Assembly (NCBI GenBank): GCA_965203055.1
Contig: OZ241863.1
Span: 512,001 to 576,000, forward strand
DNA: 64,000 bases
From: Spirochaetia bacterium
Lineage (GTDB): Bacteria; Spirochaetota; Spirochaetia; SZUA-6; Bin103
Reading direction: 5' to 3'
Shown here: positions 4,561-22,528 of the stretch, piece after piece
Numbering within the stretch: the first letter of the stretch is position 1
How the letters are laid out: every line of letters begins with the position of its first letter
Notes under the pieces: model-generated
What the model was told of the DNA's origin: nothing
What the model saw: only the letters and a program-made list of their open reading frames with translations
Database searches by the model: none
Position numbers and translations under genes: made by a program

Positions 4561-5517
4561 ATGGCCGAAACCGATGCCCATGAAATCCCCCGCATGTACG
4601 CGGTCACCGGACTGCGCGATTTCTTCCGCTATCATCGCGACGTCTACGTCTCCGGCAACCTGCTGATCTACTACGAGGAGGGCAACGTCAATGCCGCGGT
4701 AGCTCCCGACGTGTTCGTCGTGTTCGGGGTGCCGAACCGCCCCCGGCCGATCTACAATCTGTGGGAGGAGGGCAAGAGTCCCGACTTCGTGTTGGAGATT
4801 ACCTCGCGCCACACTCGGAACGAGGACCACGGGCCGAAGCGGGAGCTGTACCAGTGGCTGGGCGTGCAGGAGTACTGGCAGTACGATCCGACGGAAGGCT
4901 ACCCGGAGCCGCGGTTGCGTGGTATGCGTCTGGTGGATGGGAGGTACGAGGCGCTGGCGGCGACCACCGTTTGGGGGAGGTCTCTGTTTGTGTACAGCGC
5001 GGTGCTAGGGCTGGAACTACGGGTAATGGAAGGGGATCTGCGTTTTCACGACCCCCGGACGGAACACACTATATTGACTCTCACCGAGAGCGACGAGGAG
5101 CTGATGCGGGAACTAGTGGACCGGGGGTGGCAGAACCAAGAGCAGTTGCAGGTAAAGGAGGCGTGGCAGCAGGAACAACTGGCGCGGCAGCAGGCGGAAC
5201 AGGCATGGCAGGGAGTAGAGCAGGCGTGGCAGCAGGAGCAACTGGCACGGCAGCAGGCGGAACAGGAGCGGCAGCAGGCGGAACAGGAGCGGCAGCAGGA
5301 ACGACTGGGGCGGCAGCGGGCGGAACGAGAGCGGCAGCAGGCAGAAGACGCGCGCCATGCGGCAGAAGCGCAGGTGGCGGAGCTGCAGGCATGCTGGCGC
5401 GGCGCCACGAACCCGGCGCCGACTCCGGTCCCAGAGGGTAAACGCCCTGCGGCCACCGACTGCCTCCTTGCAAGACGCTGCCGCGGACCGCTCGACGGCG
5501 AGCTGCGGGAACCGTAG
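4561..5517 (+). CDS. Uma2 family PD-(D/E)XK endonuclease with repetitive coiled-coil tail (possible late frameshift)
   Basis: VAPDVFVVFGV, PDFVLEITS, LGVQEYWQYDP motifs; QQAEQER heptad tail. Confidence 0.85.
   Translation: MAETDAHEIPRMYAVTGLRDFFRYHRDVYVSGNLLIYYEEGNVNAAVAPDVFVVFGVPNRPRPIYNLWEEGKSPDFVLEITSRHTRNEDHGPKRELYQWLGVQEYWQYDPTEGYPEPRLRGMRLVDGRYEALAATTVWGRSLFVYSAVLGLELRVMEGDLRFHDPRTEHTILTLTESDEELMRELVDRGWQNQEQLQVKEAWQQEQLARQQAEQAWQGVEQAWQQEQLARQQAEQERQQAEQERQQERLGRQRAERERQQAEDARHAAEAQVAELQACWRGATNPAPTPVPEGKRPAATDCLLARRCRGPLDGELREP
5161..5345 (+). repeat. Degenerate 21-bp coding tandem repeats (CAGCAGGCGGAACAGGAGCGG-like)
   Basis: Repeated QQAEQER / QQEQLAR heptads in the Uma2 C-terminus. 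Confidence 0.8.
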
Positions 5518-6094: not shown

Positions 6095-7147
6095 ATGGCC
6101 ATCCATCAGCCCCACGACCGTCTGTTCAAGCGCGTGTTCGGCGCCCCGGCGGAAGCCGCGTCATTCCTGCAAGCCAGGCTGCCCGCGCGGCTCAGCCGCT
6201 CCCTGCGCTGGCCCACGCTCAAGCGGCTCCCCGCTTCGTTCGTTGCCCCGGACCTCCGCGGCACCGCTTCCGACCTGCTGTTCGAGATCGGTTACGCCGC
6301 ACCCGGCGTCGCGCAGGCTCCGCTCTGGCTCTACCTGCTGTTCGAGCATCAGTCCACCCCGGACTACTGGCTGCGCCTGCGCCTGCTGGCCTACTGCTGC
6401 CGCATCTGGGAGCACGACCGCCAAGTCCACAAGGATGCCGGCTACCTGCGCCCGATCCTGCCGCTGGTGTTCTACCAGGGTCCCACCGGCTGGCAGCACT
6501 CCCCGCAGTTCGCGGACCTGTTCCCGGCCGCAACGCGGGACTGGCCATGGCTGCCGCGGTTCGAGCACGTGCTGTTCGACCAGACTCAGATGTCGCCGGC
6601 GCAGGCGGCCGGCAGCGTCCGGGCACGGTTGCTGCAACTGACGATGATGCACGCCTTCAGCCGCGCGATGCGGGAGGCGCGGGCGCGGATGCGGGCGCTG
6701 CTGGACGACTTGGAGCGGGAAGGAAGCGGCGGGCAGGACGACATGAAGATGTTCATGCACTATATCGCGGAGACGGGGCCTGAAGACACGCCCGAGGCGA
6801 TGGGCGATATACTGAGCCACACGGCGGCAGGAGGGGAGTTGATGACGAGCGGCGAGCGGCTGCGCCAGGAAGGGCGCGACCAGATGCGCGACCAGATGCG
6901 TAACGAGATGCGAGCGGTTGCCGAACAGCGGCACCGCGAGGGCCGGAGCGAGGGCCGGAGCGAGGGGCGACTCGAGGGCCGTCTGGAAGGCCAGCGCGAG
7001 GGGCGGCTGGAGACGATCGACGGTCTCCTGAGGACCGGCGTCGACTGGTCGTTGATCGAGCGGGCGACCGGGATCGGCGAGCAGGAGTATCAGAAGCTCA
7101 GGAGCCAACCCAACGGCGCGGCCGCGGCCGGCGGCGACGGGACCTGA
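6095..7147 (+). CDS. Rpn family recombination-promoting nuclease / putative transposase (PD-(D/E)XK)
   Basis: HQPHDRLFKRVF, SDLLF, LYLLFEHQS, PILPLVFYQG; EGRxEGR repeats at the C-terminus. Confidence 0.9.
   Translation: MAIHQPHDRLFKRVFGAPAEAASFLQARLPARLSRSLRWPTLKRLPASFVAPDLRGTASDLLFEIGYAAPGVAQAPLWLYLLFEHQSTPDYWLRLRLLAYCCRIWEHDRQVHKDAGYLRPILPLVFYQGPTGWQHSPQFADLFPAATRDWPWLPRFEHVLFDQTQMSPAQAAGSVRARLLQLTMMHAFSRAMREARARMRALLDDLEREGSGGQDDMKMFMHYIAETGPEDTPEAMGDILSHTAAGGELMTSGERLRQEGRDQMRDQMRNEMRAVAEQRHREGRSEGRSEGRLEGRLEGQREGRLETIDGLLRTGVDWSLIERATGIGEQEYQKLRSQPNGAAAAGGDGT
6842..7147 (+). CDS. Putative intragenic small Rpn (RpnS-type antitoxin), in frame with rpn
   Basis: GGAGGGGAG SD just upstream of in-frame ATG 6842, encoding MTSGERLRQEG. 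Confidence 0.6.
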   Translation: MTSGERLRQEGRDQMRDQMRNEMRAVAEQRHREGRSEGRSEGRLEGRLEGQREGRLETIDGLLRTGVDWSLIERATGIGEQEYQKLRSQPNGAAAAGGDGT

Positions 7148-7198: not shown

Positions 7199-9085
7199 AT
7201 GGCTGAGCGAGACGACGGCTCCCAGAACAAGCTCTTCCGGACCGAGGTCGTTCCCGGTACGGCCGGCAGCGGACGCCTGTTCGACGAACAGGCGATGACG
7301 CCCGAACCGGTCGAGTGCCTGGGAATGACGTTCGCGTCCGGCGCCGCGCGGCGCGCGTACTTCATGGAGCGCCTGCGGGAACTGCTGCCGGAGCTGCGCA
7401 AGCGCCCCGACTTTCCCGCCGGCGATGACGAAGCCATCCTGCGGCTCTCCGATCCGCCCTGGTACACCGCCTGCCCCAACCCGTTCCTGGCCGACTTCGC
7501 GGCGCACTACGGCCGCCCCTACGACGCCGGCGAGCCGTATCACCGCGAGCCGTTCGCGGTCGACGTCAGCGAGGGCAAGACCGATCCGCTCTACCGCGCG
7601 CACGGCTACCACACCAAGGTGCCGCACCGGGCGATCGTGCCGTCGATCCTCCACTACACCAAGCCCGGCGACCTGGTGCTGGACGGGTTCTGCGGCTCGG
7701 GCATGACCGGCGTGGCCGCGCAGTGGTGCGGCACGGCGCCGGCCGAGTACCGGCGGAAGATCGAGCAACAGTGGCAGGCGGAAGGCCGCCCGGCGCCGGA
7801 GTGGGGTGGGCGCCGCGCGCTCCTGGGCGACCTGTCGCCGGCGGCGACCTTCATCGCCGCCAACTACAACACGCCGTTCGACGACGCCTTTGCCAAGGCG
7901 GCGCGGCAGCTCCTGGACGAGGTGGAAGCCGAGATCGGCTGGATGTACGAGACGCTGCATACCGACGGCAGGACGAAGGGCCGGATCAACTACACGGTAT
8001 GGAGCGAAGTGTTCTCGTGCCCGGAATGCGCCGGCGAAGTCGTGTTCCTCGACGCCGCGCTCGCCGGCGACCGGCGGACTCGGCCCGAGTTCCCGTGCCC
8101 GCACTGCTCGGCAAAGTTGACCAAGCGCAGTCTGGAACGGTCGTTCGAGACGTTCGTCGACCACGTTTCAGGTGACACATGGAGTCGAATACGGCTGCGG
8201 CCGGTGGCGATCAACTACGCGGTCGGCGCGTCAACCTGCGAGAAGGTGCCGGACGCTGACGATCTGGCGATGCTCGACCGGGTCACCAGCCTCCGGCGGC
8301 CGCTCGAAGTGCCGGTGAACGCCTTTGCCATCGACGAGATGTACCACGGATCGCGGCTGGCGCCGAAGGGATTTACCCACGTCCACCGCATGTTTCTGCC
8401 GCGATCTGCCCACGCCTTGGGGGCGATGTGGCGGCGCGCTACGGCGTGCGGCGAGCCGCGACTGCGGAACATGCTGCTGTTCTTCGTCGAGCAGGCGATC
8501 TGGGGCATGTCCGTCCTGAACCGCTATGGCCCTACCCACTTCTCCCAAGTGAACCGCCAGTTGTCAGGCGTCTACTACGTCGGTTCACAGATCGCCGAAG
8601 TCTCACCCCGGTATATCCTGGACGGCAAACGCGCCCGTCTGAGCAAGGTCTTCGCAGCGACTCACCGCCGGCACGACGTGACTGTTTCGACCGCCGACTG
8701 CGCGGCGACGACCCTGCCGGACGACTCCATCGACTACGTCTTCACCGATCCCCCGTTCGGCGAGAACATCTACTACGCCGACCTCAACTATCTCGTCGAG
8801 TCCTGGCACCGCGTCCTCACCGCCAGCCGCCCGGAAGCGATCATCGACCGCGCCAAGGGCAAGACCATCACCGACTATCAACGCCTGATGCAGCGCTGCT
8901 TCGCCGAGTACTGCCGCGTCCTCAAGCCGGGCCGGTGGATGACCGTGGTCTTCCACAACTCCCGCAACGCCGTGTGGAACGCCATCCAGGAAGCGATGCT
9001 CGCCGCCGGCTTCGTAGTCGCTGGGCATCCACATGTACGACCGCGTATCCGCCGTACTCGCCGAGTTAATCGCGAACTCATATGA
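7199..9085 (+). pseudogene. pglXI: BREX-3 DNA methyltransferase PglXI, C-terminally truncated at ~9020
   Basis: Motif I VLDGFCGSGMTG, motif IV FTDPPF, CPEC/CPHC; after AGFVVA the frame runs into foreign sequence and stops. Confidence 0.75.
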
Positions 9086-9113
9086 CGCCGACGCGACCAA
9101 GGTCTCACGATGA
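9021..9113 (+). pseudogene. Remnant of a GHKL/MORC-type ATPase N-terminus
   Basis: Manual translation LGIHMYDRVSAVLAELIANSYDADATKVSR*; ELxxNxxDA is the GHKL N-box. Confidence 0.7.
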
Positions 9114-10218
9114 GATAGTGAAGGTGTACCGTACCCAGACAGATCAGCGGCTTGATCTTTTGGTAGCCACGCCACCGTGCCAAGGAATGAGTTCTTCGAA
9201 TCCAAGCCGCGGGAGGAGGAGTACGAATCAGGGTCGCAAGGAAGATCTCAACAAGCTGATCCTCGAGGTCATTCCCGCGGCGACACGGCTTGGTCCCCGA
9301 ATCATCGTTGCAGAGAACGTCCGTCCAATCTTGACTCTTGAGGTGAGTTGTGGCGAACGTCGCCAGAAAGTCATCGACCACCTGAGAGACGGTTTGCCTG
9401 AATACCATTTCTTTTCCGGGATCATAAACGTCGCAGACTATGGTATCCCGCAGGACCGTCGCCGAGCGGTTGTAGTGGGTATCCGGCGCGACGAGCCGGG
9501 GCTTGGTTCGATTTGCGGCGCAAACGTCGTCCCATGGCCGCGGAGGACACACGCGGAATTTCCAGAGAATGGTCAATGCCAGTGGACGACTATCCGGCAG
9601 TGGATGGATTACGTGGGGTACGAGACTCTGGACTCGGCGTCATCAGCGGAGTCAATAGGCCGACACCCATTGCATTACGTTCCGAACTATGCCAATAATC
9701 CGGACCGTTACTTGCAGATTAGTCAGATTCCGCCGTATTCTGGTCGGAGCGCGTATGAAAACGACACGTGCCCGACTTGTCGTAGTCAGCCAATTCGCGC
9801 CGGAGTAGTCAAGTGCATACGTGGACACGTCATGCGCAATCGCCCGTACGTTCGCACCGGGAAGAGATTCAGACTCGTGAAGGGATTTCGATCAAGCTAC
9901 CGAAGAATGGCTCCCGACCAACCCGCCCGAACGATCACTACGAACACCAGCCACGTTGGCAGTGACTTCAAGATTCATCCATGGGAGAACAGGGTCCTGA
10001 GCACTCTCGAGTGCTCCGATCTCCAGACCGTCCCACGGTTTTTTAACTGGTCAAGTGCCATCGACGCTCAACCTAGGAGTAAGCGATACTTGATTAGAAA
10101 CTTAATTGGCGAGGCATTTCCTCCGTATTTCACTTTTCTCCATGGTAAGGTACTTGCTGAAGCGCTTCAGAACTCTCACTTCGATGCCAAGCACTTCGCC
10201 CATGACGTACGGCAGTAA
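9082..10218 (+). pseudogene. C5 cytosine DNA methyltransferase lacking N-terminal motifs I-III
   Basis: TPPCQG (IV), AENV (VI), YGIPQDRRR (VIII), RVLSTLEC..LQT (IX), IGEAFPP (X); no FxGxG motif. Confidence 0.75.
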
Positions 10219-10310
10219 ATCGTCTGTCGGCCGAAGTGACCAAGCCGGATCTTACGCGAGACGGCTATCAGTCAGATGACGATCTGAGCATCGATTGGAT
10301 TGGACTCTGA

Positions 10311-12965
10311 GTGTCGATCAGTCGAGGATCGGAAGACGTGATGCGCGTTGATGCCAGTGGCGCTTCCGGCTTGGATTTGCTGTCGCATCCGCTGGTGCTC
10401 AAGGGGGCTTGGATGCGCGTTGACGCTTGGTACCGCAGTGGTAATCTGGCACCCGAGCCGGAATTGTCACGCTGGCGACTCCATCCCGAAGCAGAACTGC
10501 GCGAGATAGGAGCAGCGCTGCGTGCCGGTAAGTGGCGTCCGAGCCTCTGGCAGCAGGTTCCGTACCCGAAGAAGGGAGCGTGTCTGCGCCACTACGTGGT
10601 GCCGACCGTCCGCGATCAGGTTGCATTTATGGCGTACATGGTGCTCCTTGGTCCCTTGGTGGATAGTCGTGTCCCGGATTTCGTGTTCGGCAACCGGTGG
10701 AACCGCAAGATCGTCTGGGATCGTCGGTGCGTCAAGCCGCAGTGGGTTCTGCATCCCTATCAGCTGCTGACCAACACCGCGTACTTGCCGTATTCACGAT
10801 CGCATGGCATGTTTCGGCGGGTCACGCACTGGACCGTGGCTCGTATGACCGGCGCGCGGATCGAGCACAAAGACTATGGCGGTTACGTGCAGCATCCGGA
10901 CGACTACGCATCCCGGCTTCCCCAATGGACCCGCAGAGAGTGGTCTCCGCCAAGCTCCGACAACGCGAGCGTCTACTGGGCGGCCCTCGATATCGAGCTT
11001 GCCTATCCCTCTATCTACCTTGGACGACTGCGTAAGGCGTTGGTCGAAATGCTGGGAAAACCTTCAACGGTCGAGGAACTGAAAACAATATATGGCGGTT
11101 ATCCACAGCCGATTCTTGTTGCGCTTGCTAATCGGAAAGAGGTCCAATGCATCGCAGGCGGTCTCGTGGACGCCCTCGAGAAGGTTGAGATCGACGCTGG
11201 ACCGATCCCTGAGAACTCCTGGCGTCCGAAACACGCGATAGGAAATCTGCCTCCCCAAAAGGACTCGGGTCTTCCCACCGGCCTTGCGGTTTCAGGCATT
11301 TTGCTAAACGTGGCGCTCCATCCTGCGGATCAATCGATCGAGCGTTATTTGCATGAACACCGTCACGAAGCCATCACTAGGTTTGCCGATGAAATATTCG
11401 TCCTGGCCCGCTCACTCGGTGGGCTGTTCGACCTCATGGAAGCCGTGTGGCGGGGGCTTGCCCAGGATGAGAACGCACGGTTGGCAAACCCTGAAACGGA
11501 ATCAAATCTCCATTTGAACTGGACCAAGATCGAGCCGAAGTCGATCCACGACATCATTGTTTGCTTCCTCAAGGCTCATGGTTGGAAAAAGTGTGAGCAT
11601 GGTACGGCTCTCTACTACTGTACGACCCCGGATCAAGTCTCGGGACTTCGCAAGTGGTGGTATGAACATCGCGAAGATCAGGAGTATGCTCGCATGTCAG
11701 ACGCCACCAAGCGTTCCGCCATTGGCTCTGGTGAAGTGGGACCATTTGTAACGACGTTGGTAGCTCGCATGAGCGAAATTGGCCGAGATACTTTGACCGA
11801 GCGGTTCGGCGAAGGGGCGCGGCAAAGGCTGATCCGGCTTCACGATTTGGCTAGATTCGACATCGACGACGTACAGGTAAGGTCGGACACCCGCCGCGCT
11901 TTCGCCGCGAACCGCCTCGTACGTGCCTGGCTACCTCCGGAGAGTTCACGCCGGGATCTTGCCGACATCCGCGACTCGGTCGCTCATGTGTTCCGAAACA
12001 CACCGTGGAAGTTCTCGCTCTGGCGGGCCGTCGTTCGCGCGGCCGCGCGCCGGCCGCAACGACCAAATCAGGCGGATGATCGCACTGCGCGGGACTGGCT
12101 GTCGAGTCAACTCGGATTGATAGCTGATCCGCCCGATGAGCGTCGCTTGGAGGTATGGATGACCACATGGCCGGAAGACAACGTCAGCGAGCAGCCCGAT
12201 CGGGATCCAAGTTGGCTTGGCCTGTACCTATCGTTCCACCGCACGGCGTTCTGGCAAGCATTGGCGGAGGGCCTCAGATGGCTATGGCGGCATGACGATG
12301 AGGCGTCCCACCCTGTCGCCGCCGGGTACGCCGGTCCCTCACCGAGTCGTTGGACCGTACGAGCTATACCACAGGGCGCGCACGCGAGCGTGCGCAGGCA
12401 TCTCGGCGCACTTGACCAATGGGTCGACGTACTCTACAAGCCTGATACGATTGAAGATCTTCGTAGATGGCCTTGGGAATTGAATCAGCTTACCGCCGCT
12501 GCTATTGCGTCGGCCTCACGCTACGACTTGGCCGTAACGTGGCGCCATGCCGAGCCTCCCGGTGACGCAGAGTTGAAGGTACCCGCCGGGCCACTTTGGC
12601 GGACCATACCGAAAACGATACAGTATCTCGAGCTGTTGGAACGCGTGAGTAGACACTCAACCGAACACGATCTTGACCTGTGCACTCTGCCGCACTTGTG
12701 GCTTGGCGGGCAGGATCGACGACTGGGTGATTTCCTTTTTCCTCGTGGTGGCGGGTCCCGAATTGACTCAAAGGAAGAACGTCCGCGCATCGTCGCGGCA
12801 GGCATATCGCTCGGATGCTCCGAGAGCATCAGCGCGGAGTTCGCGGCAGCGCTTGTGCCCAAACCTACCTGCGCGGGCAAATCGCTTCGCGATGATGGTC
12901 TTGCTCTGTGGGAGTATCACCGGGCACGGAGCATCCTTCTGGGACAGCCCGGAGAACTGCGATGA
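10311..12965 (+). CDS. UG/Abi-type (defence-associated) reverse transcriptase with long helical C-terminal region
   Basis: PYPKK..LRHY..PTVRDQVA, FGNR, LDIELAYPSI (motif A), GLPTGLAVSGILLN (motif B), RFADEIFVL (motif C), LNWTK; true start may be GTG 10338 or ATG 10341. Confidence 0.85.
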   Translation: MSISRGSEDVMRVDASGASGLDLLSHPLVLKGAWMRVDAWYRSGNLAPEPELSRWRLHPEAELREIGAALRAGKWRPSLWQQVPYPKKGACLRHYVVPTVRDQVAFMAYMVLLGPLVDSRVPDFVFGNRWNRKIVWDRRCVKPQWVLHPYQLLTNTAYLPYSRSHGMFRRVTHWTVARMTGARIEHKDYGGYVQHPDDYASRLPQWTRREWSPPSSDNASVYWAALDIELAYPSIYLGRLRKALVEMLGKPSTVEELKTIYGGYPQPILVALANRKEVQCIAGGLVDALEKVEIDAGPIPENSWRPKHAIGNLPPQKDSGLPTGLAVSGILLNVALHPADQSIERYLHEHRHEAITRFADEIFVLARSLGGLFDLMEAVWRGLAQDENARLANPETESNLHLNWTKIEPKSIHDIIVCFLKAHGWKKCEHGTALYYCTTPDQVSGLRKWWYEHREDQEYARMSDATKRSAIGSGEVGPFVTTLVARMSEIGRDTLTERFGEGARQRLIRLHDLARFDIDDVQVRSDTRRAFAANRLVRAWLPPESSRRDLADIRDSVAHVFRNTPWKFSLWRAVVRAAARRPQRPNQADDRTARDWLSSQLGLIADPPDERRLEVWMTTWPEDNVSEQPDRDPSWLGLYLSFHRTAFWQALAEGLRWLWRHDDEASHPVAAGYAGPSPSRWTVRAIPQGAHASVRRHLGALDQWVDVLYKPDTIEDLRRWPWELNQLTAAAIASASRYDLAVTWRHAEPPGDAELKVPAGPLWRTIPKTIQYLELLERVSRHSTEHDLDLCTLPHLWLGGQDRRLGDFLFPRGGGSRIDSKEERPRIVAAGISLGCSESISAEFAAALVPKPTCAGKSLRDDGLALWEYHRARSILLGQPGELR

Positions 12966-14704
12966 GGACAGTCTCGCTACACCGGCTGCTGTGGGGTGCC
13001 CTTGCGGAAACCGTTCCGCCACATGAGTGGCCTCTTCGACCTTGGGAACTCCCGGCGGTTGGACTTCCGGCTCGTGTTGCCGTCTCTCTGTTCAGTTCCG
13101 CGATAAGTGAGCTGCCTCCGAAGGACTGGGAAGCGACACATGGTCCGTTGTCGTGGACCGTCGGCCGCGGGGCTGACCTGCTCGCAATGGGAAGGCGCCA
13201 CCAGCTGGAACTTGCGGCAGGCGAGCCAACTGATGTCGATCCGGCTGAACCGGAGGTGCACAGGTCGTCGGACTGGGACGTACCGCCGCACGCGGCTTAC
13301 TTTCTACCTCGTCTAGCCACAACATCGGTTGACGCCAACAGTTATGCCGTCTATTGCGACGTATTGATGCTACTCACCGCAATCGACGGTGAGGAGTCGA
13401 TTCTCGATGCTATAGTGGACCATGGTACGGGTGCAGTGCCGTTTGAGGATCGATGGAGTTGGCGCTCTCGCATCCATCTGCCCAAAGAAGCGTGGCGTCT
13501 GATCGAGCGAACTCTGCGCTGGGCGGAGAACCCAGTCGAGGATGTCGAGCAGATCGTGAAGTCGCTTGCCGTGGCCTTGGAGGAATGGAGGCCCGCCAAG
13601 GTCGGGTTCGATGACTTCGTTCGCGAGCGAGTCGACGTGCTGCTGGACGCGAGAGACGAACACGAGGGCACGCGTACGGTGCGCCTCCCTGATTCACCTG
13701 ACTCGGAGCTACCGACCGAGTTAATGCTGCAGGATAGGCAACTCTACGATCAGTTTGTCGTGCGCATAGGGCAGATCGATGCCTGGACGCCGAAAGCGCA
13801 TGTCGTTGCGAACTTCCCTGCGATGGCTCCGGGATCGATACGTGGCATCATGGAGCAAGTAGCGTATGCGTTCCGATCTCCAAGCCACGGTAGCCCCGAT
13901 CACACACCCGACTTGGTTCTACTCCCGGAGGTCTCGATCCCACAGCCCGAAGTCCCGGTAGTGCGCGACTTGGTTGCAAGAACAGGTCGCGCGGCGCTGG
14001 CCGGCTTGTACTGGCAGGAGCTCAAGCCCGTGTATCGGGCATGTTACGGGACGGTGCCGGCCAGGAAGTGGTTCGTCAACGAAGCTGAACTCGTGATCCC
14101 TTTCGGACGCGACGATCGTGGTCCGCCGAGCATCCGCTGGTACCGCGTACGGAAGCCGCTGCCGGCGCACAATGAAACAGGTTTGGCGCAAGCCCTTTCC
14201 GCACAGTCGCCAGGTACGACGTGGCGCATTCTACGGGGCTACCGGTGGTACCGTTTCGTGCATCGCCGGTGGGGCGACTTTACGATTTCCATCTGCGCGG
14301 ATTTGATCGATACGGCTCCTTGGCGGTCACTACGCGGCGAGTTGCTCCATCTGTTCATGGTCGCCTTCAACAAAGACGTAGATCTCTATGATTCCCTCAC
14401 CTGGGTCAGGGCATACGAGACCTACGTGAACCTTGTCTCTGTAAATCACGGCCAATATGGTGGCTCCTTTCTCTGGACGCCGCGCCGAAGCCACTCCCAC
14501 GAGCTTGCTCGACTCCGGGGACAAAAGCTGTTCGTTACTGCCGACATCACCATTCCGGTGAAGGACCTGCTTGCGGCGCAGCGTCTCGGTGTTCGGGACG
14601 CTATCTCGACGGCAGCATGCGATTGGGCCGGGACTCAGCACCAACGGTCCGCGTTCAAGTCACCGCCTCCCGGATTCCAGCGACGAGCCCTTCTGATTGT
14701 GTAG
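12962..14704 (+). CDS. Carbon-nitrogen hydrolase (nitrilase) domain protein with ~250-aa unknown N-terminal region
   Basis: E-K-C triad in PDLVLLPEVSIP, RVRKPLPAHNE, ISICADL; FNKD and VNHGQYGGS; ATGA overlap with the RT stop and GGAG SD at 12951. Confidence 0.85.
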   Translation: MRTVSLHRLLWGALAETVPPHEWPLRPWELPAVGLPARVAVSLFSSAISELPPKDWEATHGPLSWTVGRGADLLAMGRRHQLELAAGEPTDVDPAEPEVHRSSDWDVPPHAAYFLPRLATTSVDANSYAVYCDVLMLLTAIDGEESILDAIVDHGTGAVPFEDRWSWRSRIHLPKEAWRLIERTLRWAENPVEDVEQIVKSLAVALEEWRPAKVGFDDFVRERVDVLLDARDEHEGTRTVRLPDSPDSELPTELMLQDRQLYDQFVVRIGQIDAWTPKAHVVANFPAMAPGSIRGIMEQVAYAFRSPSHGSPDHTPDLVLLPEVSIPQPEVPVVRDLVARTGRAALAGLYWQELKPVYRACYGTVPARKWFVNEAELVIPFGRDDRGPPSIRWYRVRKPLPAHNETGLAQALSAQSPGTTWRILRGYRWYRFVHRRWGDFTISICADLIDTAPWRSLRGELLHLFMVAFNKDVDLYDSLTWVRAYETYVNLVSVNHGQYGGSFLWTPRRSHSHELARLRGQKLFVTADITIPVKDLLAAQRLGVRDAISTAACDWAGTQHQRSAFKSPPPGFQRRALLIV

Positions 14705-14815
14705 CGAGATGCTCTACCCGTGTTGATCGACCGTCCGTTGTGGTTCCTTTGGATATGGGGCGAACCCTCTGCGATCGTGTGTGCGCTTTGAGCGCTAAGA
14801 GCGGGAGACGAGCCG

Positions 14816-17635
14816 GTGTTGCAACCCGGTGATTGGGCGTGGAGCCCCGCGCACCGGCAGGTTTGCCGGGTGGTCGAGACGCAGGACCTGTGGGGAGCGG
14901 CGCAGCGCCGGGTCTGGCTGCCGGCTTCCGAGGCGTTCGTCCGGGTTCGGTCGGACCAGCTCCGTCCGCTCTCGGAGTCGGCCGTCGCGGGGCGCTCGTG
15001 GCTGACCTACGCGGCAGCCGCGGCGCGGGTCGCCGGCGCGCTGGCGCAGGACGCGCTGCTGGCGCCGATCGAGTCGCCGGTCATCCCGTTGCCGCACCAG
15101 ATCAGTGCGCTGGCGCGGGCGACGGCGGGCAACCGCGTCCGCTATCTGCTGGCGGACGAAGTCGGACTCGGCAAGACGATCGAGGCCGGTCTCATCATGC
15201 GCGAGCTCAAGCTGCGCGGCATCGTACGGCGAACCTTGGTGGTGGCCCCCAAGGGGCTCGTCAACCAGTGGGTGGCGGAGCTGCGCACCCACTTCGCCGA
15301 GGAGTTTCGCGCCTTCCTGCCGAGCGACTTCCCCGCCTTCCGCCGCATCGCGCCGGCGGACAACGTCTGGCGAACCTGCGATCAGATCGTGTGCCCGCTG
15401 GATGCGGTCAAGCCGCTCGACGGCCGCCGCGGGTGGTCGCGGGAACGGGTGGCCGAGCACAACCGCGACCGGTTCGAGGACCTGACCGCCGCCGGCTGGG
15501 ACCTGATCATCATCGACGAGGCGCATCGCCTGGGCGGCAGCACCGATCAGGTCGCCCGCTATCAGCTTGGCCGCGGGTTGGCGGAGGCCGCGCCTTGTCT
15601 GCTCCTGCTCTCCGCGACCCCGCATCAGGGCAAGACCGACGCGTTCCATCGGCTGCTGTCGCTGATCGACGCGACCGCGTTCCCCGACCCCGGCGCCATC
15701 TCCAGCGAACGGGTCCGGCCATTCGTGATCCGCACCGAGAAGCGGCGCGCGATCGACGCCGACGGAAAGCCGTTGTTCAAGCCGCGCCATACCCGCCTCG
15801 AACCGATCGCCTACGATGAGCGGCACGCCGGCCAGCGCGCGCTCTACGAGGCGGTGACCGAATACGTGCGCGACGGCTACAACCGGGCGCTGCGGGAACA
15901 CCAGGGGCACCTCGGCTTCCTGATGATCCTGATGCAGCGGCTGGTCACCTCCTCGACCCGCGCGATCCGCGTCACCCTGGAACGCCGCCTCGAAGCGCTG
16001 GCCGCGCCGGGCGAGCAGCTCCTGCTGTTTCCCGAGCTGACTGACGAGGAATGGGCCGACCTCGACGGCCAGGAGCAGATCGACACGTTGCTCTCCAGCC
16101 GGTTGAGCGCCCTCAAGAACGAACGCGCGGAGGTGACGCTGCTCCTCGAAGCGGCCCGGCGGACGGAGCGCGCCGGCGCCGATGCCAAGGCGGAAGCCCT
16201 GCTCGGCTGGATCTATCGGTTGCAGCAGGAGGAGAGCGACCCCGATCTGAAGGTCCTGATCTTCACCGAGTTCGTCGCCACGCAGGAGATGCTGCGCGAA
16301 TTTCTGGCCGACCGGGGATTCCCGGTGGTCTGTCTCAACGGATCGATGGGATTGGAGGAACGCGCGCAGGCGCAGCAATCGTTCGCCGGCGCGGCCCGCT
16401 TCCTGGTGTCGACCGACGCCGGCGGCGAAGGTCTGAACCTGCAGTTCTGCCACGTGGTGGTCAACTACGACATTCCCTGGAATCCGATGAAGCTGGAGCA
16501 GCGGATCGGCCGCGTCGACCGCATCGGCCAGACCCACGCCGTGAGGGCCGTCAACTTCGTGGTCCGGGATACGGTCGAGCACCGCGTCCGCGAGGTGCTG
16601 GAGGAGAAGCTGGCGGTCATCCTGGCGGAATTCGGCGTCGACAAGACCGAAGACATCCTCGATTCGGCGCAGGCCGGACAGATGTTCGACGATCTCTACG
16701 TCGAGGCGATCGTCCGCCCACACGGTCTGCGCGCCCGGGTCGATGCCGTGATGCGCGAGGTCGGACGGCAAGGCCAGGCGGTCCGCGAGAGCGCCGCGGT
16801 CTACGGGAGCGCCGAAGCGCTCGATCCGGGACCGGCGCGGCGCCTGCGGTCTCACCCCCTGCCGCACTGGATCGAAACCATGGTCGTCAACTACCTCCGC
16901 GCGCACGGCGGCGCCGCAGACCGGAGCGGCCAGACCTGGAACCTGACGTGGCCGGACGGCGAGCGTCTGGAAGCCGTCTCGTTTGCCGCCGGGGGCGCGC
17001 GGGGCGCGCCCCGCGACCTGTCCGCCCGCCAGCTCACGCTCGACGACCCGCGGGTGCGCGCGCTCGTCGAGCGGCTCCCCCGGTTCGCCCCCGGCCAGCC
17101 GATCCCCTGCCTTGCGCTGGAACGATTGCCGGCCGAGGTGCGGGGCTTCTGGTCCCTGTGGCAGATCACGCTGCACGCCCCCGAGCGAGGCCGCAGCCGC
17201 GTCATGCCGCTGTTCCGCCACGACGACGGGCGGATATTCGCGCCGACCGCGCGGTTCATCTGGGACCGGCTGCTGGCCGGCGCGCCGGCTGCCGGCCCTG
17301 CTCTCCACGGGCCTGCTCTCCACGGCGCAGCGGCCGCCGCGGCGTTCGCGGCCGTCGAACGGTCGGCCCGCGAGCATGGCCGGCCGGTCTACCAGGAGCT
17401 GCTCCTCGCCCACCGCGCGGACGTCGCCGCGCGCCGCGAGCGGGGCGAATACTCCTTCGCCGCCCGGCGCCGCTCCATCGGGCGGATCGGGCTGCCGGCG
17501 GTGCGCAACCATCGCCTGGCGCAGCTTGCCGCCGAGGAGCGGTCGTGGCGCGCGGCGCTCGCGCGCGAGAACGAGTCCAGCCCGGACCTGGCGCCGCTGA
17601 TCGTCGTCCGGGTGGAGGGAGCGGGCGGTTCGTGA
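14816..17635 (+). CDS. brxHII: BREX-3 SNF2-family helicase BrxHII
   Basis: LLADEVGLGKT, DEAH, LLLSATP, STDAGGEGLNLQ, EQRIGRVDRIGQ; lies before pglZ. Confidence 0.88.
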   Translation: MLQPGDWAWSPAHRQVCRVVETQDLWGAAQRRVWLPASEAFVRVRSDQLRPLSESAVAGRSWLTYAAAAARVAGALAQDALLAPIESPVIPLPHQISALARATAGNRVRYLLADEVGLGKTIEAGLIMRELKLRGIVRRTLVVAPKGLVNQWVAELRTHFAEEFRAFLPSDFPAFRRIAPADNVWRTCDQIVCPLDAVKPLDGRRGWSRERVAEHNRDRFEDLTAAGWDLIIIDEAHRLGGSTDQVARYQLGRGLAEAAPCLLLLSATPHQGKTDAFHRLLSLIDATAFPDPGAISSERVRPFVIRTEKRRAIDADGKPLFKPRHTRLEPIAYDERHAGQRALYEAVTEYVRDGYNRALREHQGHLGFLMILMQRLVTSSTRAIRVTLERRLEALAAPGEQLLLFPELTDEEWADLDGQEQIDTLLSSRLSALKNERAEVTLLLEAARRTERAGADAKAEALLGWIYRLQQEESDPDLKVLIFTEFVATQEMLREFLADRGFPVVCLNGSMGLEERAQAQQSFAGAARFLVSTDAGGEGLNLQFCHVVVNYDIPWNPMKLEQRIGRVDRIGQTHAVRAVNFVVRDTVEHRVREVLEEKLAVILAEFGVDKTEDILDSAQAGQMFDDLYVEAIVRPHGLRARVDAVMREVGRQGQAVRESAAVYGSAEALDPGPARRLRSHPLPHWIETMVVNYLRAHGGAADRSGQTWNLTWPDGERLEAVSFAAGGARGAPRDLSARQLTLDDPRVRALVERLPRFAPGQPIPCLALERLPAEVRGFWSLWQITLHAPERGRSRVMPLFRHDDGRIFAPTARFIWDRLLAGAPAAGPALHGPALHGAAAAAAFAAVERSAREHGRPVYQELLLAHRADVAARRERGEYSFAARRRSIGRIGLPAVRNHRLAQLAAEERSWRAALARENESSPDLAPLIVVRVEGAGGS

Positions 17636-19614
17636 CGAGCTGGCGTGATTCGATCCTCGCGGAGCTCGCCCCGCACGCCGCCCGGCTCACGATCGCGGCC
17701 GACCCCGACGGCCTGCTGCTGGAAGCGGGGGTGCTCCAGGAAATCGCGGCGCGCGGGTTCGAGCTGATCACGGTCGAGGATCGCGTCGCGTTCCGCTTCA
17801 CCTACGAATCGCGCTACCGTTCGCGCGGGGACCGCGGCGAGCGCACCGGCCCGGGCCTCGTGCTGCGGACCGACGAATCGGACCTGGGCGCGCTGCCGTA
17901 CGATCTCCTGCACGCCGGCCGGCGGGTCTCGTTCAGCCTGGGCGCGCTGTTCCCGCACCTGAGCCGCGCGGTCATGAGCACGCTGGAGCGGAGCGACCTC
18001 GATGCCCTGTATCAGGCGCAGACGCGCGCGCCGCCGGCCCGCCCGCTCGGTGACGCTCAGACCGCCGACTTCGTCCTGCGCCACGTCTTCGGGATCGCGC
18101 CCGAAACCATCAGGCAGGAGTCCGATCTGCTCCGCTTCCTGTTGCGCCGGCACTACCGCGAGCTGCGCATTCCGGCGCCGCTCGACGATCACCTGCTCCG
18201 GCTGCTGGCGCGGAACCCGGCGTTCGCCGCTTGGCCGTTGCGCCGGATCATGGCCGACCGCGAGGCGTTCTTCGCGTTCCTGCAGGAGCGCTGGCCGGCC
18301 TTCCTCGACCGGCGCACGACCGACGCCGCCACGATACGCGATCCGGCCACCGCTTCCGAAATCTCGTTCGACCACCCCGACGTGCGAGTCTACCTCGACA
18401 ACCTCTTCCTGGAGGGTTTTCTCCGGCCCGTACCGCACCCGCGCGCCGCGCGGCTGGCCGGCTCGTGGGAGATCGCCGGCATCAGGCGCGACCCGGCCGC
18501 CGATCGGCAGCGCCGGCTGGCAGGGCTGCTGAACGCCGTCGAGACGTCGATCCCCGCGCCGACCGCGCGGCACCAGGAGTGGCTGGCGTTCGCGCGGCGC
18601 TGGGCGCAGGTGAACGCCCTCCGGTTCGGCGCCAACGGCGGCCCCGGCGCCGCTGAATCCCGGTCCCGGTACGCCGCCATCCGCGATCGGATCGACGCGG
18701 CCTTCGCGGCGTGGCTCGCACAGCGCTACGGCGCGCTCCACAACCAGCCGCCGCTGCCGCCGGTGATGGTCCACCACGTGCCGCGCATGCTCGCCCGGGC
18801 TCTGGAAGAATCTGCCGAGGCCAAGGCGGCGCTGGTGCTGGTGGACGGCCTGTCGCTCGACCAGTGGTCCACGGTCCGCGGCGTGCTGGCCGAGCAGCGG
18901 CCGGGCCTGCGGTTCCGGGAGGGCGGCCTGTTCGCGTGGATACCCACGCTCACCATGGTGTCGCGGCAGGCGTGCTTCAGCGGCCGCCCGCCGCTCTACT
19001 TCCCGTCCAGCATACACACCACCGACCGCGAGCCGGCCGCGTGGCAGCGGTTCTGGGCGGACGCGGGACTGTCCGCGGCCGAGGTCGGTTATCAAAAGAC
19101 CCTGCGCGACCGAGCCGATCTGGACCGCGCCGCGCAGCTCGCGTCGCATCCTGGCGTGCGCGTGGCCGGACTGGTCGTCGACGCGGTCGACCGGATCATG
19201 CACGGCATGACGCTCGGCCAGTCCGGCATGCACAACCAGATACGCCAGTGGACGAGGCGGGGCGTGCTGGCGGACCTGCTCGACCTGCTGCTCGACCACG
19301 GCTTCGCGGTCTGGCTCACCTCCGACCACGGCAACGTCGAGACGCGCGGCTGCGGCCGTCCGGGCGAGGGCGCCGCCGCGGACCTGCGCGGCGAACGGGT
19401 TCGCGTCTACTCCGATCCGGGGCTGCGCGCGCGGGTGGCGGAGCGGTTTCCGGACGCGGCGGCGTGGCCGTCACTCGGGCTGCCGGACGACTACCTGGCG
19501 TTGATCGCTCCCGGCCGAGCGTCGTTCGTCCGCCCGGCGGAGCGTCCCGTGGCGCACGGCGGAATCACGCTGGAAGAGGTGGTCGTGCCGCTGGTGCGGA
19601 TCGAACGGCAATGA
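17632..19614 (+). CDS. pglZ: BREX-3 phosphatase PglZ
   Basis: GTG start MTSWRDSIL overlapping the helicase stop; LVLVDGLSLDQW, PTLTMVSRQA, TSDHGN, HGGITLEEVVVP. Confidence 0.9.
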   Translation: MTSWRDSILAELAPHAARLTIAADPDGLLLEAGVLQEIAARGFELITVEDRVAFRFTYESRYRSRGDRGERTGPGLVLRTDESDLGALPYDLLHAGRRVSFSLGALFPHLSRAVMSTLERSDLDALYQAQTRAPPARPLGDAQTADFVLRHVFGIAPETIRQESDLLRFLLRRHYRELRIPAPLDDHLLRLLARNPAFAAWPLRRIMADREAFFAFLQERWPAFLDRRTTDAATIRDPATASEISFDHPDVRVYLDNLFLEGFLRPVPHPRAARLAGSWEIAGIRRDPAADRQRRLAGLLNAVETSIPAPTARHQEWLAFARRWAQVNALRFGANGGPGAAESRSRYAAIRDRIDAAFAAWLAQRYGALHNQPPLPPVMVHHVPRMLARALEESAEAKAALVLVDGLSLDQWSTVRGVLAEQRPGLRFREGGLFAWIPTLTMVSRQACFSGRPPLYFPSSIHTTDREPAAWQRFWADAGLSAAEVGYQKTLRDRADLDRAAQLASHPGVRVAGLVVDAVDRIMHGMTLGQSGMHNQIRQWTRRGVLADLLDLLLDHGFAVWLTSDHGNVETRGCGRPGEGAAADLRGERVRVYSDPGLRARVAERFPDAAAWPSLGLPDDYLALIAPGRASFVRPAERPVAHGGITLEEVVVPLVRIERQ

Positions 19615-20354
19615 CCATGGATGAGCGGCGCAGGATCATCGGCTTCGATCGCAAGCTCAGCTTGAGCTGGTTGGACGCGACCGCCGACTGGACGGCGCAG
19701 GGCCTGCCCGCGGCCGCGATACGGAAGCGGCTCGACCGCCTGCTCGACGGGCAGGTAGCGGGCGGCGGCCCCCACAGCGCGCGCGGCAAGACCATGACCG
19801 TGCTGCTGCATCTCTGGGTGCTGATCCCGGACGAACTCGGCCCCTTGCGGGACGATGGCATCGACCTGCTGCGCGGCCGCTCCGGCCGCGACCGCCTGCC
19901 GGTCCACTGGGGCATGTGCCTGGCCACCTATCCGTTCTTTCGCGACGTGGCCGCAACGACCGGCCGGCTCCTTGCTCTGCAGGGCCGCGCCGCGCTGGCG
20001 CAGATCGTCCGGCGCACCACCGAATCCTGGGGCGCCCGGAGCACCGTGACGCGCGCTGCGCAACGCATCGTCCGCTCCTTCGTCGGCTGGGGCGTTCTGG
20101 CCGAGACCGGCGAGCGCGGCATCTTCGCGCCCGCGCCAAGAATCGCCGTGCACGACGGCGGCACGGCCGCCTGGCTGCTGGAAGCCGGCATCGCCGCCGC
20201 CGGCCACCGGGAGTACCCGCTCCGCAGCCTTGCCGGTCAAGCCTCGTTCTACCCACTCGATCTGCGCCTGGCCGCCCGCGACGTCCGTCTCCGCCCGCGG
20301 CTGGCGCTCCATCATCGAGGGATCGACGGGCCGGTCGTTACCGGCGATGGCTGA
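19611..20354 (+). CDS. brxA: BREX-3 BrxA-like protein
   Basis: ATGA-coupled to pglZ; IGFDRKL..WLD, HWGMCLATYPFF; terminal gene position of BREX-3. Confidence 0.7.
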   Translation: MTMDERRRIIGFDRKLSLSWLDATADWTAQGLPAAAIRKRLDRLLDGQVAGGGPHSARGKTMTVLLHLWVLIPDELGPLRDDGIDLLRGRSGRDRLPVHWGMCLATYPFFRDVAATTGRLLALQGRAALAQIVRRTTESWGARSTVTRAAQRIVRSFVGWGVLAETGERGIFAPAPRIAVHDGGTAAWLLEAGIAAAGHREYPLRSLAGQASFYPLDLRLAARDVRLRPRLALHHRGIDGPVVTGDG

Positions 20355-20410: not shown

Positions 20411-22528
20411 CCTTTCCCACTCGGCGCCCTTGCAGGGTAAGCTGAAGGGCAACCTACGTAATCCCGTAAGAGGGGAGGTTCACATTATGCGTAAACCGTA
20501 CTGGGCAGCCCTTGCTGCCATCGTCCTGTGCGCCGGCACGGCGTTTGCCGCAGGCGAAACCGAAGGGGGCGGCAGCGACGCCGCCATGGGCGACATGGGC
20601 GGCGCCATGATGGTGGACTTCGAGCCTACCCGGCAGGTGGTGCAATACAACACCATCGCCGACTATGAACGCGCGACCGGGAACAAGATCAGCTCGTTCC
20701 AGCAGTCGCCGATGCTCGATCCGCTGGTGGCCAACGGCTCGCTGCCGCCGGTGGAAGACCGGCTGCCGGATGAACCGCTGGTGATGCAGCCGGCCGACCG
20801 CATCGCCGAGTACGGCGGCACCATGATCAACGGCCACGAAGGCAACGTCGACTTCCTCGAAGACCTGCTGCGCGAGTTCCCGCACGTGTACGGCTCCGAC
20901 ATGCAGGGCGTGCTGCCCAACGTGTTCATGCAGGCCGACACCAGCGCCGACGGCAGGACGACCACCTTCACCATCCGTCCCGGGATCAAGTGGTCGGACG
21001 GCGAGCCGTTCGGGGCGGACGACTTCATGTTCTGGTACGAGGCGGTCGCGCTCAACCAGGAGTTGCGGCCCAACGGGGTGAACAACATGAAGGCCGGCGG
21101 GGAGATGGGAACGGTCGCCAAGGTGGACGACAACACCATCGTGATGACCTTCCGGGCGCCGTACGGGGTGTTGCACGAGCGCCTCAACCGGTGGCGGCCG
21201 ATGCCGTACCGCCCGGCGCACTACCTGAAGCAGTTCCATCCCGGCTACACCGACGCCGGCGAGGTGGCCGCCGCCGCCAAGGAGAAGGGGTTCAACACCT
21301 GGGTCGAGCTGTTCTGGGACGAAGCCTACTGGTACAACAACCCGAACACGCCGACCATCTTCGCCTGGCGCACGCTCAACCGGGGCAACAGCGCGCCGGT
21401 GCAGGAGCTGGAGCGCAACCCCTACTACTGGAAGATCGACATCGCCGGCAACCAGCTTCCCTACATCGACCGCGTGAGCCGCCCCAACATGGGCGACCGC
21501 GAGGCGATTCTGCTCAAGGTGCTGGCCGGCGAGAACGACTACATGAATCCGTACACCCTCGGTTTCAGCACCAACTACCCGGTACTGAAGCAGAACGAGG
21601 AGCGCGGCGGGTACCGGCTCTATCCGCAGTTCGGCTGGTCGAACGTGGTGGGGGTCGTCGTCTTCAACATGTCGATCGACGATCCGGTGCTGCGCGAGCT
21701 GTTCCGCGACAAGGAGTTCCGCATCGCGCTGTCGATCGGCTACGACCGCGACGAGATCAACGAGGTGGTGTTCAGCGGGCAATACAAGCCGTCCCAGGTG
21801 GCGCCCCCCGACTCGTCGGTGTACGACGGCGGCAGCGCCGCCTTCAAGCAACACATCGAGCATGACCCGGACCGGGCCAACCAGATACTGGACGGTCTCG
21901 GCCTGACCTGGAACAGCGACCGCAGCCAGCGCCTGCTGCCGGACGGGCGTCCGTTCGAGCTGGTGGCGCAGGTGCATACCGGCTGGATTCAGCAGGTGCC
22001 GATCGCCGAGCTGATCGCGCAGGGCTGGGAAGACCTCGGCCTCAAGACCGTCATTCGGCCGCTGCAGGGCAGCGACCACTCGGCGCGCCGGTCGGCGGGC
22101 GACTACGAACTGCAGATTCGTCCGGTCAACTGGGCCGGCGTCGCGCCGATCATCGGCGCGCTGCGCTGCGAGCCGGTGCCGATCTGCCCCAACTGGTTGG
22201 TCAATCCGCCGTGGGCGCGCTGGGTCCTGACCGGAGGCGCCGACGGCGAGGAGCCGCCGGCGGGGGTGAAGCGGTTGTATCAGATCTTCGAGGAGTTCCT
22301 GGCCGAGCCCGACGCCCAAAAGCGGTTCGAGCTGGAAGCTGAGATGTACCGCATCCACCAGGACAACCTGTGGCTGATCGGCTCCATCAAGCAGCCGGCG
22401 GACCTGCTGCAGATCCGCTACGCGCCGTTCTCCAACCGCATGTACAACATTCCCGACCCGGTGGCGCCCGAGTGGTATTACTCCGCTCCCGAAACCTGGG
22501 CCTACCGCGCCGACGGCTGACCGGCGGC
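20411..22528 (+). repeat. Copy 1 of a ~2.1-kb direct duplication (oxidoreductase 3' tail, leader and SBP gene)
   Basis: Near-identical to 23533-25646, including leader and the 8 nt after the stop. Confidence 0.9.
20487..22520 (+). CDS. ABC transporter substrate-binding protein, family 5 (copy 1)
   Basis: Signal peptide; LPPVEDRLPDEP, GIKWSDG, ERNPYYWKID..GNQLPYID. Confidence 0.9.
   Translation: MRKPYWAALAAIVLCAGTAFAAGETEGGGSDAAMGDMGGAMMVDFEPTRQVVQYNTIADYERATGNKISSFQQSPMLDPLVANGSLPPVEDRLPDEPLVMQPADRIAEYGGTMINGHEGNVDFLEDLLREFPHVYGSDMQGVLPNVFMQADTSADGRTTTFTIRPGIKWSDGEPFGADDFMFWYEAVALNQELRPNGVNNMKAGGEMGTVAKVDDNTIVMTFRAPYGVLHERLNRWRPMPYRPAHYLKQFHPGYTDAGEVAAAAKEKGFNTWVELFWDEAYWYNNPNTPTIFAWRTLNRGNSAPVQELERNPYYWKIDIAGNQLPYIDRVSRPNMGDREAILLKVLAGENDYMNPYTLGFSTNYPVLKQNEERGGYRLYPQFGWSNVVGVVVFNMSIDDPVLRELFRDKEFRIALSIGYDRDEINEVVFSGQYKPSQVAPPDSSVYDGGSAAFKQHIEHDPDRANQILDGLGLTWNSDRSQRLLPDGRPFELVAQVHTGWIQQVPIAELIAQGWEDLGLKTVIRPLQGSDHSARRSAGDYELQIRPVNWAGVAPIIGALRCEPVPICPNWLVNPPWARWVLTGGADGEEPPAGVKRLYQIFEEFLAEPDAQKRFELEAEMYRIHQDNLWLIGSIKQPADLLQIRYAPFSNRMYNIPDPVAPEWYYSAPETWAYRADG

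Follow-up and report, generated by a model that had tools for sequence, protein, structure and literature searches.

We propose that two overlapping genes in the genome of a Spirochaetia bacterium encode the two subunits of a single anti-phage system of the reverse transcriptase (RT)-nitrilase kind. The genes lie on a 64,000-nucleotide stretch of contig OZ241863.1 (assembly GCA_965203055.1, positions 512,001 to 576,000 of the forward strand), referred to here as the window and numbered from its first nucleotide, where they are embedded in a type 3 BREX locus. The upstream gene encodes an RT (10311-12965, +) and the downstream gene a nitrilase subunit of 580 residues (12962-14704, +). We consider it likely that they form a class 3 UG/Abi-type RT-nitrilase system representing an unclassified lineage nearest to UG6. 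As judged from alignments, the catalytic residues of both proteins are intact in the window copy, the pair is orthologous to a single RT-linker-nitrilase protein and so is one enzyme in two pieces, and the two halves are translationally coupled and co-evolving. The pair probably defends against phages by suicide, in a general manner that is already known. A preceding sequence-only reading of the window, made without database searches, had taken the genes for a genuine RT and nitrilase pair of the UG/Abi (DRT) kind, and this assignment holds, as all PADLOC matches of the pair are to DRT or RT models and hhalign aligns the RT to UG6 with a probability of 99.95.

The RT gene can be read from a GTG at 10311, giving 884 residues, or from an ATG at 10341, giving 874. 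The start is probably ATG 10341, since conservation is lacking over the first 20 residues (mean column identity 0.14) and a database protein of 874 residues (P0003) is identical to the RT over the aligned length, which is 99% of the query. The part homologous to UG6 comprises the RT core and an adjoining helical segment (residues ~20-539, 10368-11927, +), as delimited by hhalign and by invariant residues, and it carries the motifs A, B and C that the sequence-only reading had recognized. These are placed by alignment at D227 (motif A, 10989-10991, +), GLPTG (motif B, 11268-11282, +) and FADE (motif C, 11382-11393, +). D227 and the F358-A359-D360 of motif C are invariant in 117/117 aligned relatives, GLPTG is invariant as well, and motifs B and C also align to solved retron-type and group II RTs. 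Position 361, the last of motif C, is D in 105 and E in 12 of the 117 relatives, and hence the FADE of the window is a recurrent, tolerated variant rather than a lesion. Of the 229 columns with a conservation of 90% or more, the window RT deviates at 7; across the 117 sequences the median is 5 and the highest count 23. The remaining C-terminal extension (residues 540-884, 11928-12962, +) is specific to the family, within which it has many invariant Trp and Arg residues; it gave no Pfam match at E≤5, is unaligned to UG6 by hhalign and has no usable match in the ESM Atlas. The conserved Ser, Thr and Tyr residues of the RT were listed as candidates for a priming residue, and none could be singled out.

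The nitrilase subunit has partners in the database of similar length (~580 residues) at 47-98% identity. Its C-terminal half is a divergent C-N hydrolase (nitrilase) domain (13898-14683, +), identified by invariant catalytic residues and by PADLOC, in which the intact E-K-C triad of the sequence-only reading is borne out: E323 (13928-13930), K398 (14153-14155) and C445 (14294-14296) are invariant among the nitrilase relatives, and E405 (14174-14176) is at least 90% conserved. The domain ends in a C-terminal tail (F565-R574, 14654-14683, +) in which FK(A/S)PPPGFxRR is nearly invariant (F565, K566, P568-P570, G571 and R574). The best PADLOC match is to RTasNitrilase (9.3e-34, 115 bits, model positions 174-397 of 397), followed by RT_UG5-nitrilase (4.7e-23) and Drt1a (1.6e-11), and all of these are confined to residues ~312-574. 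The only PDB match of the nitrilase (profile A2) is DRT1 (9YFD), with C445 aligned to the catalytic C1116 of that enzyme. The N-terminal region had previously been described as about 250 residues that could not be assigned; it is real and still without assignment, but it is closer to 300 residues long (residues 1-300, 12962-13861, +), as the PADLOC match begins at residue 313. It is conserved, with W11, G12, C132, H172, E222 and D225 invariant, and in fused relatives it runs on directly from the RT extension, the two together making a central region of ~650 residues. Residues 1-300 gave no Pfam match at E≤5 and no hhalign match to the UG6 RT protein, and the ESM Atlas returned no usable match, its best score of 0.83 being a lead only.

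The two genes meet in a coupling junction (12951-12965, +) in which a GGAG (12951-12954) precedes the nitrilase ATG (12962-12964), which in turn overlaps the RT stop TGA (12963-12965) as ATGA, exactly as first reported. The sequence-only reading went on from this arrangement to a distinct two-component system, and here it does not hold up, since the same orthologous family is fused into one open reading frame (ORF) in 46 of 118 database relatives, among the matches listed. The RT database search returned 274 relatives, and the best 120 of these fall into 74 of ≤950 residues and 46 of ≥1,350 residues; the fused proteins are ~1,470 residues long (range 1,350-1,690), as long as the two window proteins together. 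On a FastTree phylogeny of 118 sequences the split or fused label changes at least 11-12 times, and the well-supported clade of 22 members that contains the window is split in 21 and fused in 1. When 185,579 species genomes were scanned by motif, 41 loci were obtained (L numbers below), all in metagenome-assembled genomes, from Spirochaetota, Myxococcota, Acidobacteriota, Gemmatimonadota, Pseudomonadota, Chloroflexota, Planctomycetota, Elusimicrobia and Bacillota. Both parts are present in 37 of them, as one open frame in 19 and not so in 18, and 13 clean split pairs were confirmed on the DNA of other genomes. The collected homologues thus show the split to be conserved and not a lesion of the assembly.

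Comparison of the junction in 33 loci shows that the breaks all fall between ...EY.RARR.LLG and TLHRLLWG, within a linker that is variable and ~10 residues long. There are at least five kinds of junction (ATGA overlap, stop plus 2 nucleotides plus ATG as in TAAccATG, in-frame TAA, GTG overlaps and TGATG), and because they differ between loci, fission or fusion must have happened repeatedly. The ATGA junction of the window recurs in L001-L003 and in independent database entries. The RT tree and the nitrilase tree agree, with 8 of 9 strong RT splits recurring and one conflict that involves the long-branched L006. When the tree is rooted on UG6, the superfamily (78 representatives, 54 fused and 19 split) is monophyletic and the fused forms lie on its deep branches (FastTree, with long branches), which suggests that the fused form is probably ancestral. 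Programmed frameshifting was considered as a route to a fused product and set aside, as the overlap is not preceded by a slippery heptamer and the frame relations at the junction differ between loci. A natural enzyme that exists as one chain or two, broken repeatedly at one linker, offers a system for asking how an RT talks to a nitrilase.

The position of the family among known RTs was assessed with PADLOC models and profile alignments. The best PADLOC match of the window RT is RT_UG6 (77 bits, 2.3e-22), covering model positions 138-348 of 925, or 23% of the model, and neither window protein matches any described PADLOC DRT model in full. A profile search of the whole library returned 1,228 representatives at E≤1e-3 and 190 clusters (50% identity) at E≤1e-30, and 36 of 150 listed representatives were scored against RT_UG6. 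Eight of the 36 are true UG6 proteins (seven of 1,046-1,087 residues and one of 789), and these controls (P0374-P0384) scored 464-1107 bits, the full-length ones 703-1107 over positions 2-921 and the 789-residue one 464. The other 28 reached 72-103 bits where E≤1e-20 was attained at all, and the family overall 58-103; ten relatives give partial PADLOC matches like those of the window pair. In the hhalign comparison the RT alignment (A1) and the UG6 alignment (A3) match with E 1.2e-38 over residues 14-539 at 24% identity, and the homology ends at RT residue 539, which corresponds to UG6 residue 467. The RT does not belong to the UG5 lineage either, matching RT_UG5-nitrilase at E 0.009 only, and the Drt1a matches of the RT (E 1.3e-6) and of the nitrilase are both partial. 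The Pfam RVT_1 match falls below its cut-off, RVT_1 and the group II intron RT model both matching weakly, and a tblastn search with the RT found no match at 1e-5 among the plasmids of PLSDB or the phages of INPHARED.

The pair nevertheless shows the features of class 3. The RT is of the UG/Abi type by its top PADLOC matches and by hhalign; a C-N hydrolase is associated with it through an overlapping gene and fused to it in 19 of the 37 loci; and the large protein of >1,000 residues with a long extension between RT and effector is found in the fused relatives and is here divided between the two subunits. On these alignments and profile scores, the pair is a lineage within the class 3 UG/Abi RTs that is unclassified, lying nearest to UG6 yet probably falling outside it. 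The separate nitrilase gene is no obstacle to this rank, because a nitrilase in an ORF of its own is already described for UG5-small and UG6 (PMC9226505; PMC13436386), and the statement of the sequence-only reading that the nitrilase domains of such RTs are typically fused overlooks these two cases. In the literature searched there was no description of this lineage, nor of RT-nitrilase modules inside BREX. A large unclassified lineage is added to the RT-nitrilase (class 3 UG/Abi) defense enzymes, and its occurrence, so far in uncultured bacteria only, is probably why current DRT models miss it.

A mechanism for the pair can be sketched by analogy with DRT1, DRT5S/L and DRT11. According to PMC13275509, DRT1, DRT5S and DRT5L carry out protein-primed, template-free DNA synthesis, RT and nitrilase mutants of DRT1 (including C1116) lose defense, and DRT1 has a conserved C-terminal lid. 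By analogy, the window RT would make short, untemplated DNA with a protein side chain as the primer, and the DNA adduct would lead to nitrilase-mediated oligomerization into a poised, dormant state, in which the C-terminal tail of the nitrilase may act as an active-site lid in parallel with that of DRT1. A phage cue would then release the nitrilase, which would destroy an essential C-N-bond metabolite and so bring about abortive infection. No credible Rfam match to a template RNA was found in positions 8500-15200 at an E-value threshold or in the whole window at the gathering threshold, and the flanking spacers fold no better than shuffled sequences (z -0.51 and +1.61). There is also no room for a template RNA in L001, L004 and L006, as the inferred RT start overlaps the pglXI stop. 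The absence of a candidate template RNA gives indirect support to a DRT1-like mechanism. The spacer between the nitrilase gene and brxHII is 111 nucleotides, too short for a membrane-protein gene or any other gene, in agreement with the sequence-only reading, and among the neighbor clusters across loci no third conserved gene accompanies the module beyond lineage-specific neighbors. Promoter and terminator scans were at or below shuffle expectation.

The host locus of the window is a type 3 BREX locus (295-20354, +) in which, by PADLOC, all six genes of the type 3 set are found. By PADLOC and Pfam these include brxF (295-792, +), brxC (809-4552, +), brxHII (14816-17635, +), pglZ (~17635-19614, +) and brxA (~19617-20354, +). 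The sixth gene, pglXI (7199-9085, +), is truncated to 628 residues and matches the PADLOC PglXI model over positions 6-591 of 919, so the function of the BREX system is doubtful. By tblastn the window pglXI corresponds to residues 18-637 of the 969-residue PglXI of L001, the homology stops at nucleotide 9022, and the C-terminal third (~330 residues) has no further match anywhere in the window. It is followed by a 5'-truncated C5 cytosine methyltransferase ORF (9082-10218, +; Pfam DNA_methylase 48-311 of 324, PADLOC MTase_II 54-333 of 344), the translation of which has its PPCQ motif ~31 residues from the start and lacks the S-adenosylmethionine-binding motif I. The sequence-only reading had placed the pair between pglXI and brxHII, which is right as to position but passes over both the intervening methyltransferase ORF and the truncation of pglXI. 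Both pglXI and the methyltransferase gene were probably cut short by a single deletion near 9022-9082, and the window BREX-3 may therefore be disabled.

The methyltransferase fragment, the RT gene and the nitrilase gene together form a low-GC island (~9020-14750) in the composition profiles, with a GC content of 51-64% in a window of ~68%, and its left edge coincides with the pglXI breakpoint at 9022. The lower GC noted at first sight is confirmed, the RT and nitrilase genes being at 0.59-0.60 (0.64-0.66 at third codon positions, GC3) and the BREX genes at 0.70-0.73 (GC3 0.87-0.92). Only short, chance-like repeats flank the island. We envisage that the module may have arrived with the methyltransferase gene as lower-GC cargo in the type 3 BREX operon, that a later deletion would have clipped pglXI and the methyltransferase gene, and that the module probably acts on its own as a second defense layer. 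The interval between brxC and pglXI is a second cargo slot of this BREX locus, with a Uma2-family (PD-(D/E)XK) gene (4549-5517) and an Rpn/YhgA-like nuclease gene (6095-7147) inserted. Elsewhere in the window there is a second restriction-like pair (33935-41032), in which a 1,298-residue PLD-nuclease and SNF2-helicase protein is followed by a 1,024-residue Eco57I/MmeI-type methyltransferase, and an N6/N4 DNA methyltransferase ORF adjoining an HNH endonuclease ORF (55365-56857, -), possibly a small restriction-modification pair. An 86-nucleotide tRNA-Cys called by ARAGORN (22081-22166) inside an SBP_bac_5 ORF (20430-22520) is probably a false call, as Rfam reports no tRNA there.

The module of the window is not alone in its setting, as it lies between core genes of BREX-type systems in 9 of the 41 other loci. 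The embedded cases are in BREX-3 (the window, L001, L003, L004 and L006), in BREX-1 between brxC and pglX (L017, L019 and L025), in Hma/DUF499 (L018) and in DISARM (L033). Related arrangements are seen in L021 and L022, where HmaB lies just downstream of the module, and in L027 and L030, which are decayed versions of embedded arrangements; DrmMI-type genes are nearby in L023 and L040. Other PADLOC defense genes are close by in L002, L008, L009, L011, L013, L015, L026, L028, L032, L037 and L039. For 36 evaluable loci, 5 being too short or too broken, PADLOC defense genes (E≤1e-20 or 1e-25) lie within ~6.5 kb of the module in 26. BrxHII is absent between brxF and brxA in L003, L004 and L006, where the module fills the slot between pglXI and pglZ. 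The nitrilase stop and the pglZ start overlap as ATGA in L006, and a GTG compatible with the RT N-terminus overlaps the stop of pglXI in L001, L004 and L006 (GTGA, the RT starts being inferred). Of the two main RT clades, only one contains embedded cases (11/16 versus 0/10 rows, Fisher p=0.0007, although related rows are not independent), the embedded state changes at least five times on the RT tree, and the BREX-3 cases do not form one clade. Identity to the window falls in the order L001, L003, L004, L006 for BrxC (75/62/59/54%), for the RT (69/53/50/46%) and for the nitrilase (76/57/53/48%), and in PglZ (68/56/57/52%) L003 and L004 are level. In 8 of 10 loci examined, no flanking core gene has a GC3 as low as that of the module.

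The same slots also hold other genes, including those of ShosTA, HEC-01, RmrA, SoFic and Schlafen type. Proteins with Schlafen/AlbA_2 and HATPase_c_4 domains are encoded inside or beside BREX-3 in L001 (5169-7019), L003 (5156-7096), L004 (5257-7206) and L006 (17278-18531); a Fic-like domain follows at the C-terminus in those of L001, L003 and L004, and the proteins match the Schlafen class of backup effectors as the BREX survey describes it (PMC12839542). A 321-residue Peptidase_M78/IrrE-like gene precedes pglZ in L003. In the gammaproteobacterial loci L018 (14491-15949), L021 (14310-15915) and L022 (14353-16339), the nitrilase is followed directly by a ShosTA pair on the opposite (-) strand, between the module and the HmaB methyltransferase. 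A protein of 604-716 residues with AAA-ATPase_like and PDDEXK_9 domains is encoded in L018 (8057-9871), L021 (8143-9966), L015 (15795-17945) and L022 (3886-5772); its gene adjoins the module in three of these loci and is 4 kb off in the fourth, and it could be an accessory gene or separate cargo. Some copies of the module are damaged, with an interrupted RT in L012 and L015, a frameshift in L032 and degradation in L027, L030 and L036. The inserts in the RT genes of L012 (11710-13281) and L015 (11938-13108) are ~1.2-1.5 kb long and carry an ORF (461 residues on the - strand in L012, 346 residues in L015), and they are probably mobile-element insertions that inactivated the RT-nitrilase.

Several of these observations, together with some from the literature, weigh against a working class 3 RT-nitrilase system. 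The ~650 central residues match nothing in Pfam, hhalign or the ESM Atlas, and Pfam (CN_hydrolase) gives no match to the nitrilase domain, even at E≤5 by segment. The likeness to DRT1 is remote, extending over ~90 residues around the catalytic Cys (E 8e-8) with an RT match of E 0.0097, and the DRT1 priming serine is stated in PMC13275509 not to be conserved in other class 3 DRTs. For UG6 itself, the defense prediction was called inconclusive by Mestre 2022 (PMC9226505). No defense neighbor was found at the thresholds used in L005, L010, L012, L014, L016, L020, L029, L036, L038 and L041, and the modules of L001 and L003 are not lower in GC3 than all their neighbors. In the window itself the RT carries glutamate in place of D at position 361 and glycine in place of the near-invariant C431, and the pair sits beside two clipped genes and so could be decaying. 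If so, the window copy would be an inactive relic in a decaying locus, in keeping with the degraded related copies in L012, L015, L027, L030 and L032. We regard this as quite unlikely, as both ORFs are full length and keep every invariant residue, the number of deviating columns is close to the median of the family, glutamate at 361 recurs among the relatives, and other assemblies contain an identical RT and a nitrilase protein at 98% identity. Far less probable still is the absence of any defense role, whereby the pair would be a retroelement remnant with a metabolic nitrilase beside it, or a fused gene would look split through an error of assembly or a frameshift. The weak matches to RVT_1 and the group II intron model would fit a retroelement, but maturase and endonuclease domains are absent, Rfam detects no intron RNA and flanking repeats are lacking; the nitrilase matches DRT-associated nitrilase models only and not Pfam CN_hydrolase; and while the fused form is common and probably ancestral, the shared ATGA junction in other loci and entries and the lack of a slippery heptamer both speak against an artefact.

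The more substantial alternative, which we nonetheless think unlikely, is that the RT-nitrilase is an integrated arm of BREX-type methylation systems, acting as a backup suicide effector when BREX, Hma or DISARM is blocked or as a substitute for BrxHII. It draws on the residence of the module between core genes in the window and nine other loci, with L021, L022, L027 and L030 as related cases, on its place in the BrxHII slot of L003, L004 and L006, on the start and stop overlaps with pglZ and (inferred) pglXI, on the restriction of embedded cases to one RT clade, and on the identity ranking that BrxC shares with the RT and the nitrilase. Furthermore, it has been argued that BREX loci recruit backup effectors such as PARIS (PMC12839542). 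Nevertheless, the family is common elsewhere, including one whole clade and at least 21 evaluable loci, unrelated cargo occupies the same slots, as would be expected of a hotspot, and the GC3 of the module is mostly below that of its hosts. In addition, BrxHII is missing from 23% of type 3 BREX systems anyway (by the figures given in PMC12839542), and the BREX-3 cases do not group into a single clade. The suggestion of the sequence-only reading that the BREX locus served as an insertion hotspot is plausible on these grounds, as the module recurs in BREX-3, BREX-1, Hma and DISARM of several phyla, but it is incomplete, since the codon overlaps could mean functional coupling. A stronger form, doubtful in our view, is that the clade is a dedicated companion of methylation-based, BREX-type immunity (BREX-3, BREX-1, Hma/DUF499 and DISARM) that is both transcribed and translated as part of the operons of these systems, takes the place of BrxHII in some BREX-3 loci and serves as their own suicide arm, responding when the host system fails or is inhibited. 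If true, it would be the first RT-based component of a BREX-type system. The repeated residence of the module in BREX-3, BREX-1, Hma and DISARM operons makes it testable whether such embedded suicide modules are independent of the host system or wired to it.

The two genes are best compared, as subunits of one RT-nitrilase enzyme, with the RT-nitrilase systems already described. UG6 is the nearest lineage to the window RT, over residues 14-539, and shares with it the arrangement of a separate downstream nitrilase gene, which in UG6 belongs to cluster 285, the lack of a membrane partner and the group-II-like N-terminal RT motifs reported by myRT for UG6. It differs in its low identity and in its end of homology at residue 539, with the window RT covering less than a quarter of the RT_UG6 model, and in a C-terminal (kinase-like) domain that has no counterpart in the window pair; the window nitrilase subunit has an extra 300-residue N-terminal region, and the window family also exists fused. 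The DnaG-type primase of UG6 (cluster 192), or a Toprim domain, is absent from the window ORFs between 1 and 25 kb by Pfam and PADLOC, and no primase appeared in the neighbor clusters shared among loci, which were scanned mainly with PADLOC so that one could be missed. UG5-small (DRT5S; nitrilase cluster 249) is likewise a two-gene RT and nitrilase system without a membrane protein, and it differs from the window pair in the marginal score of its RT model against the window RT, in protein sizes and in the central region.

The comparison with DRT1 (UG1) is one of architecture. The order of parts in the fused relatives, with an RT, a long middle region and a C-terminal nitrilase, is that of DRT1, C445 of the window nitrilase corresponds to C1116, and both have a conserved C-terminal tail. 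In contrast, DRT1 is one chain of 1,229 residues and the window pair two chains of ~1,454-1,464 residues in total, the DRT1 priming Ser402 is not transferable to the window RT, and the drt1b membrane partners are absent from the window. With the backup effectors embedded in BREX and BREX-related loci, described as PARIS/OLD-ABC, Schlafen and GmrSD in a 2026 survey (PMC12839542), the window module shares its location between core genes, its orientation and often its operon; the difference is that the survey catalogued nucleases, its main text having 0 occurrences of reverse transcriptase, nitrilase or DRT, and it places BrxHII in 77% of type 3 BREX systems. Finally, DRT11 (UG5-large) from Sinorhizobium meliloti provides abortive-infection-like defense that needs both catalytic centers and no membrane protein (PMC13436386). 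It is fused, shorter, of the UG5 lineage, plasmid-borne and outside BREX loci, unlike the window module, but a minimal RT and nitrilase suffices in DRT11, and this is a functional precedent for the partner-less module of the window.

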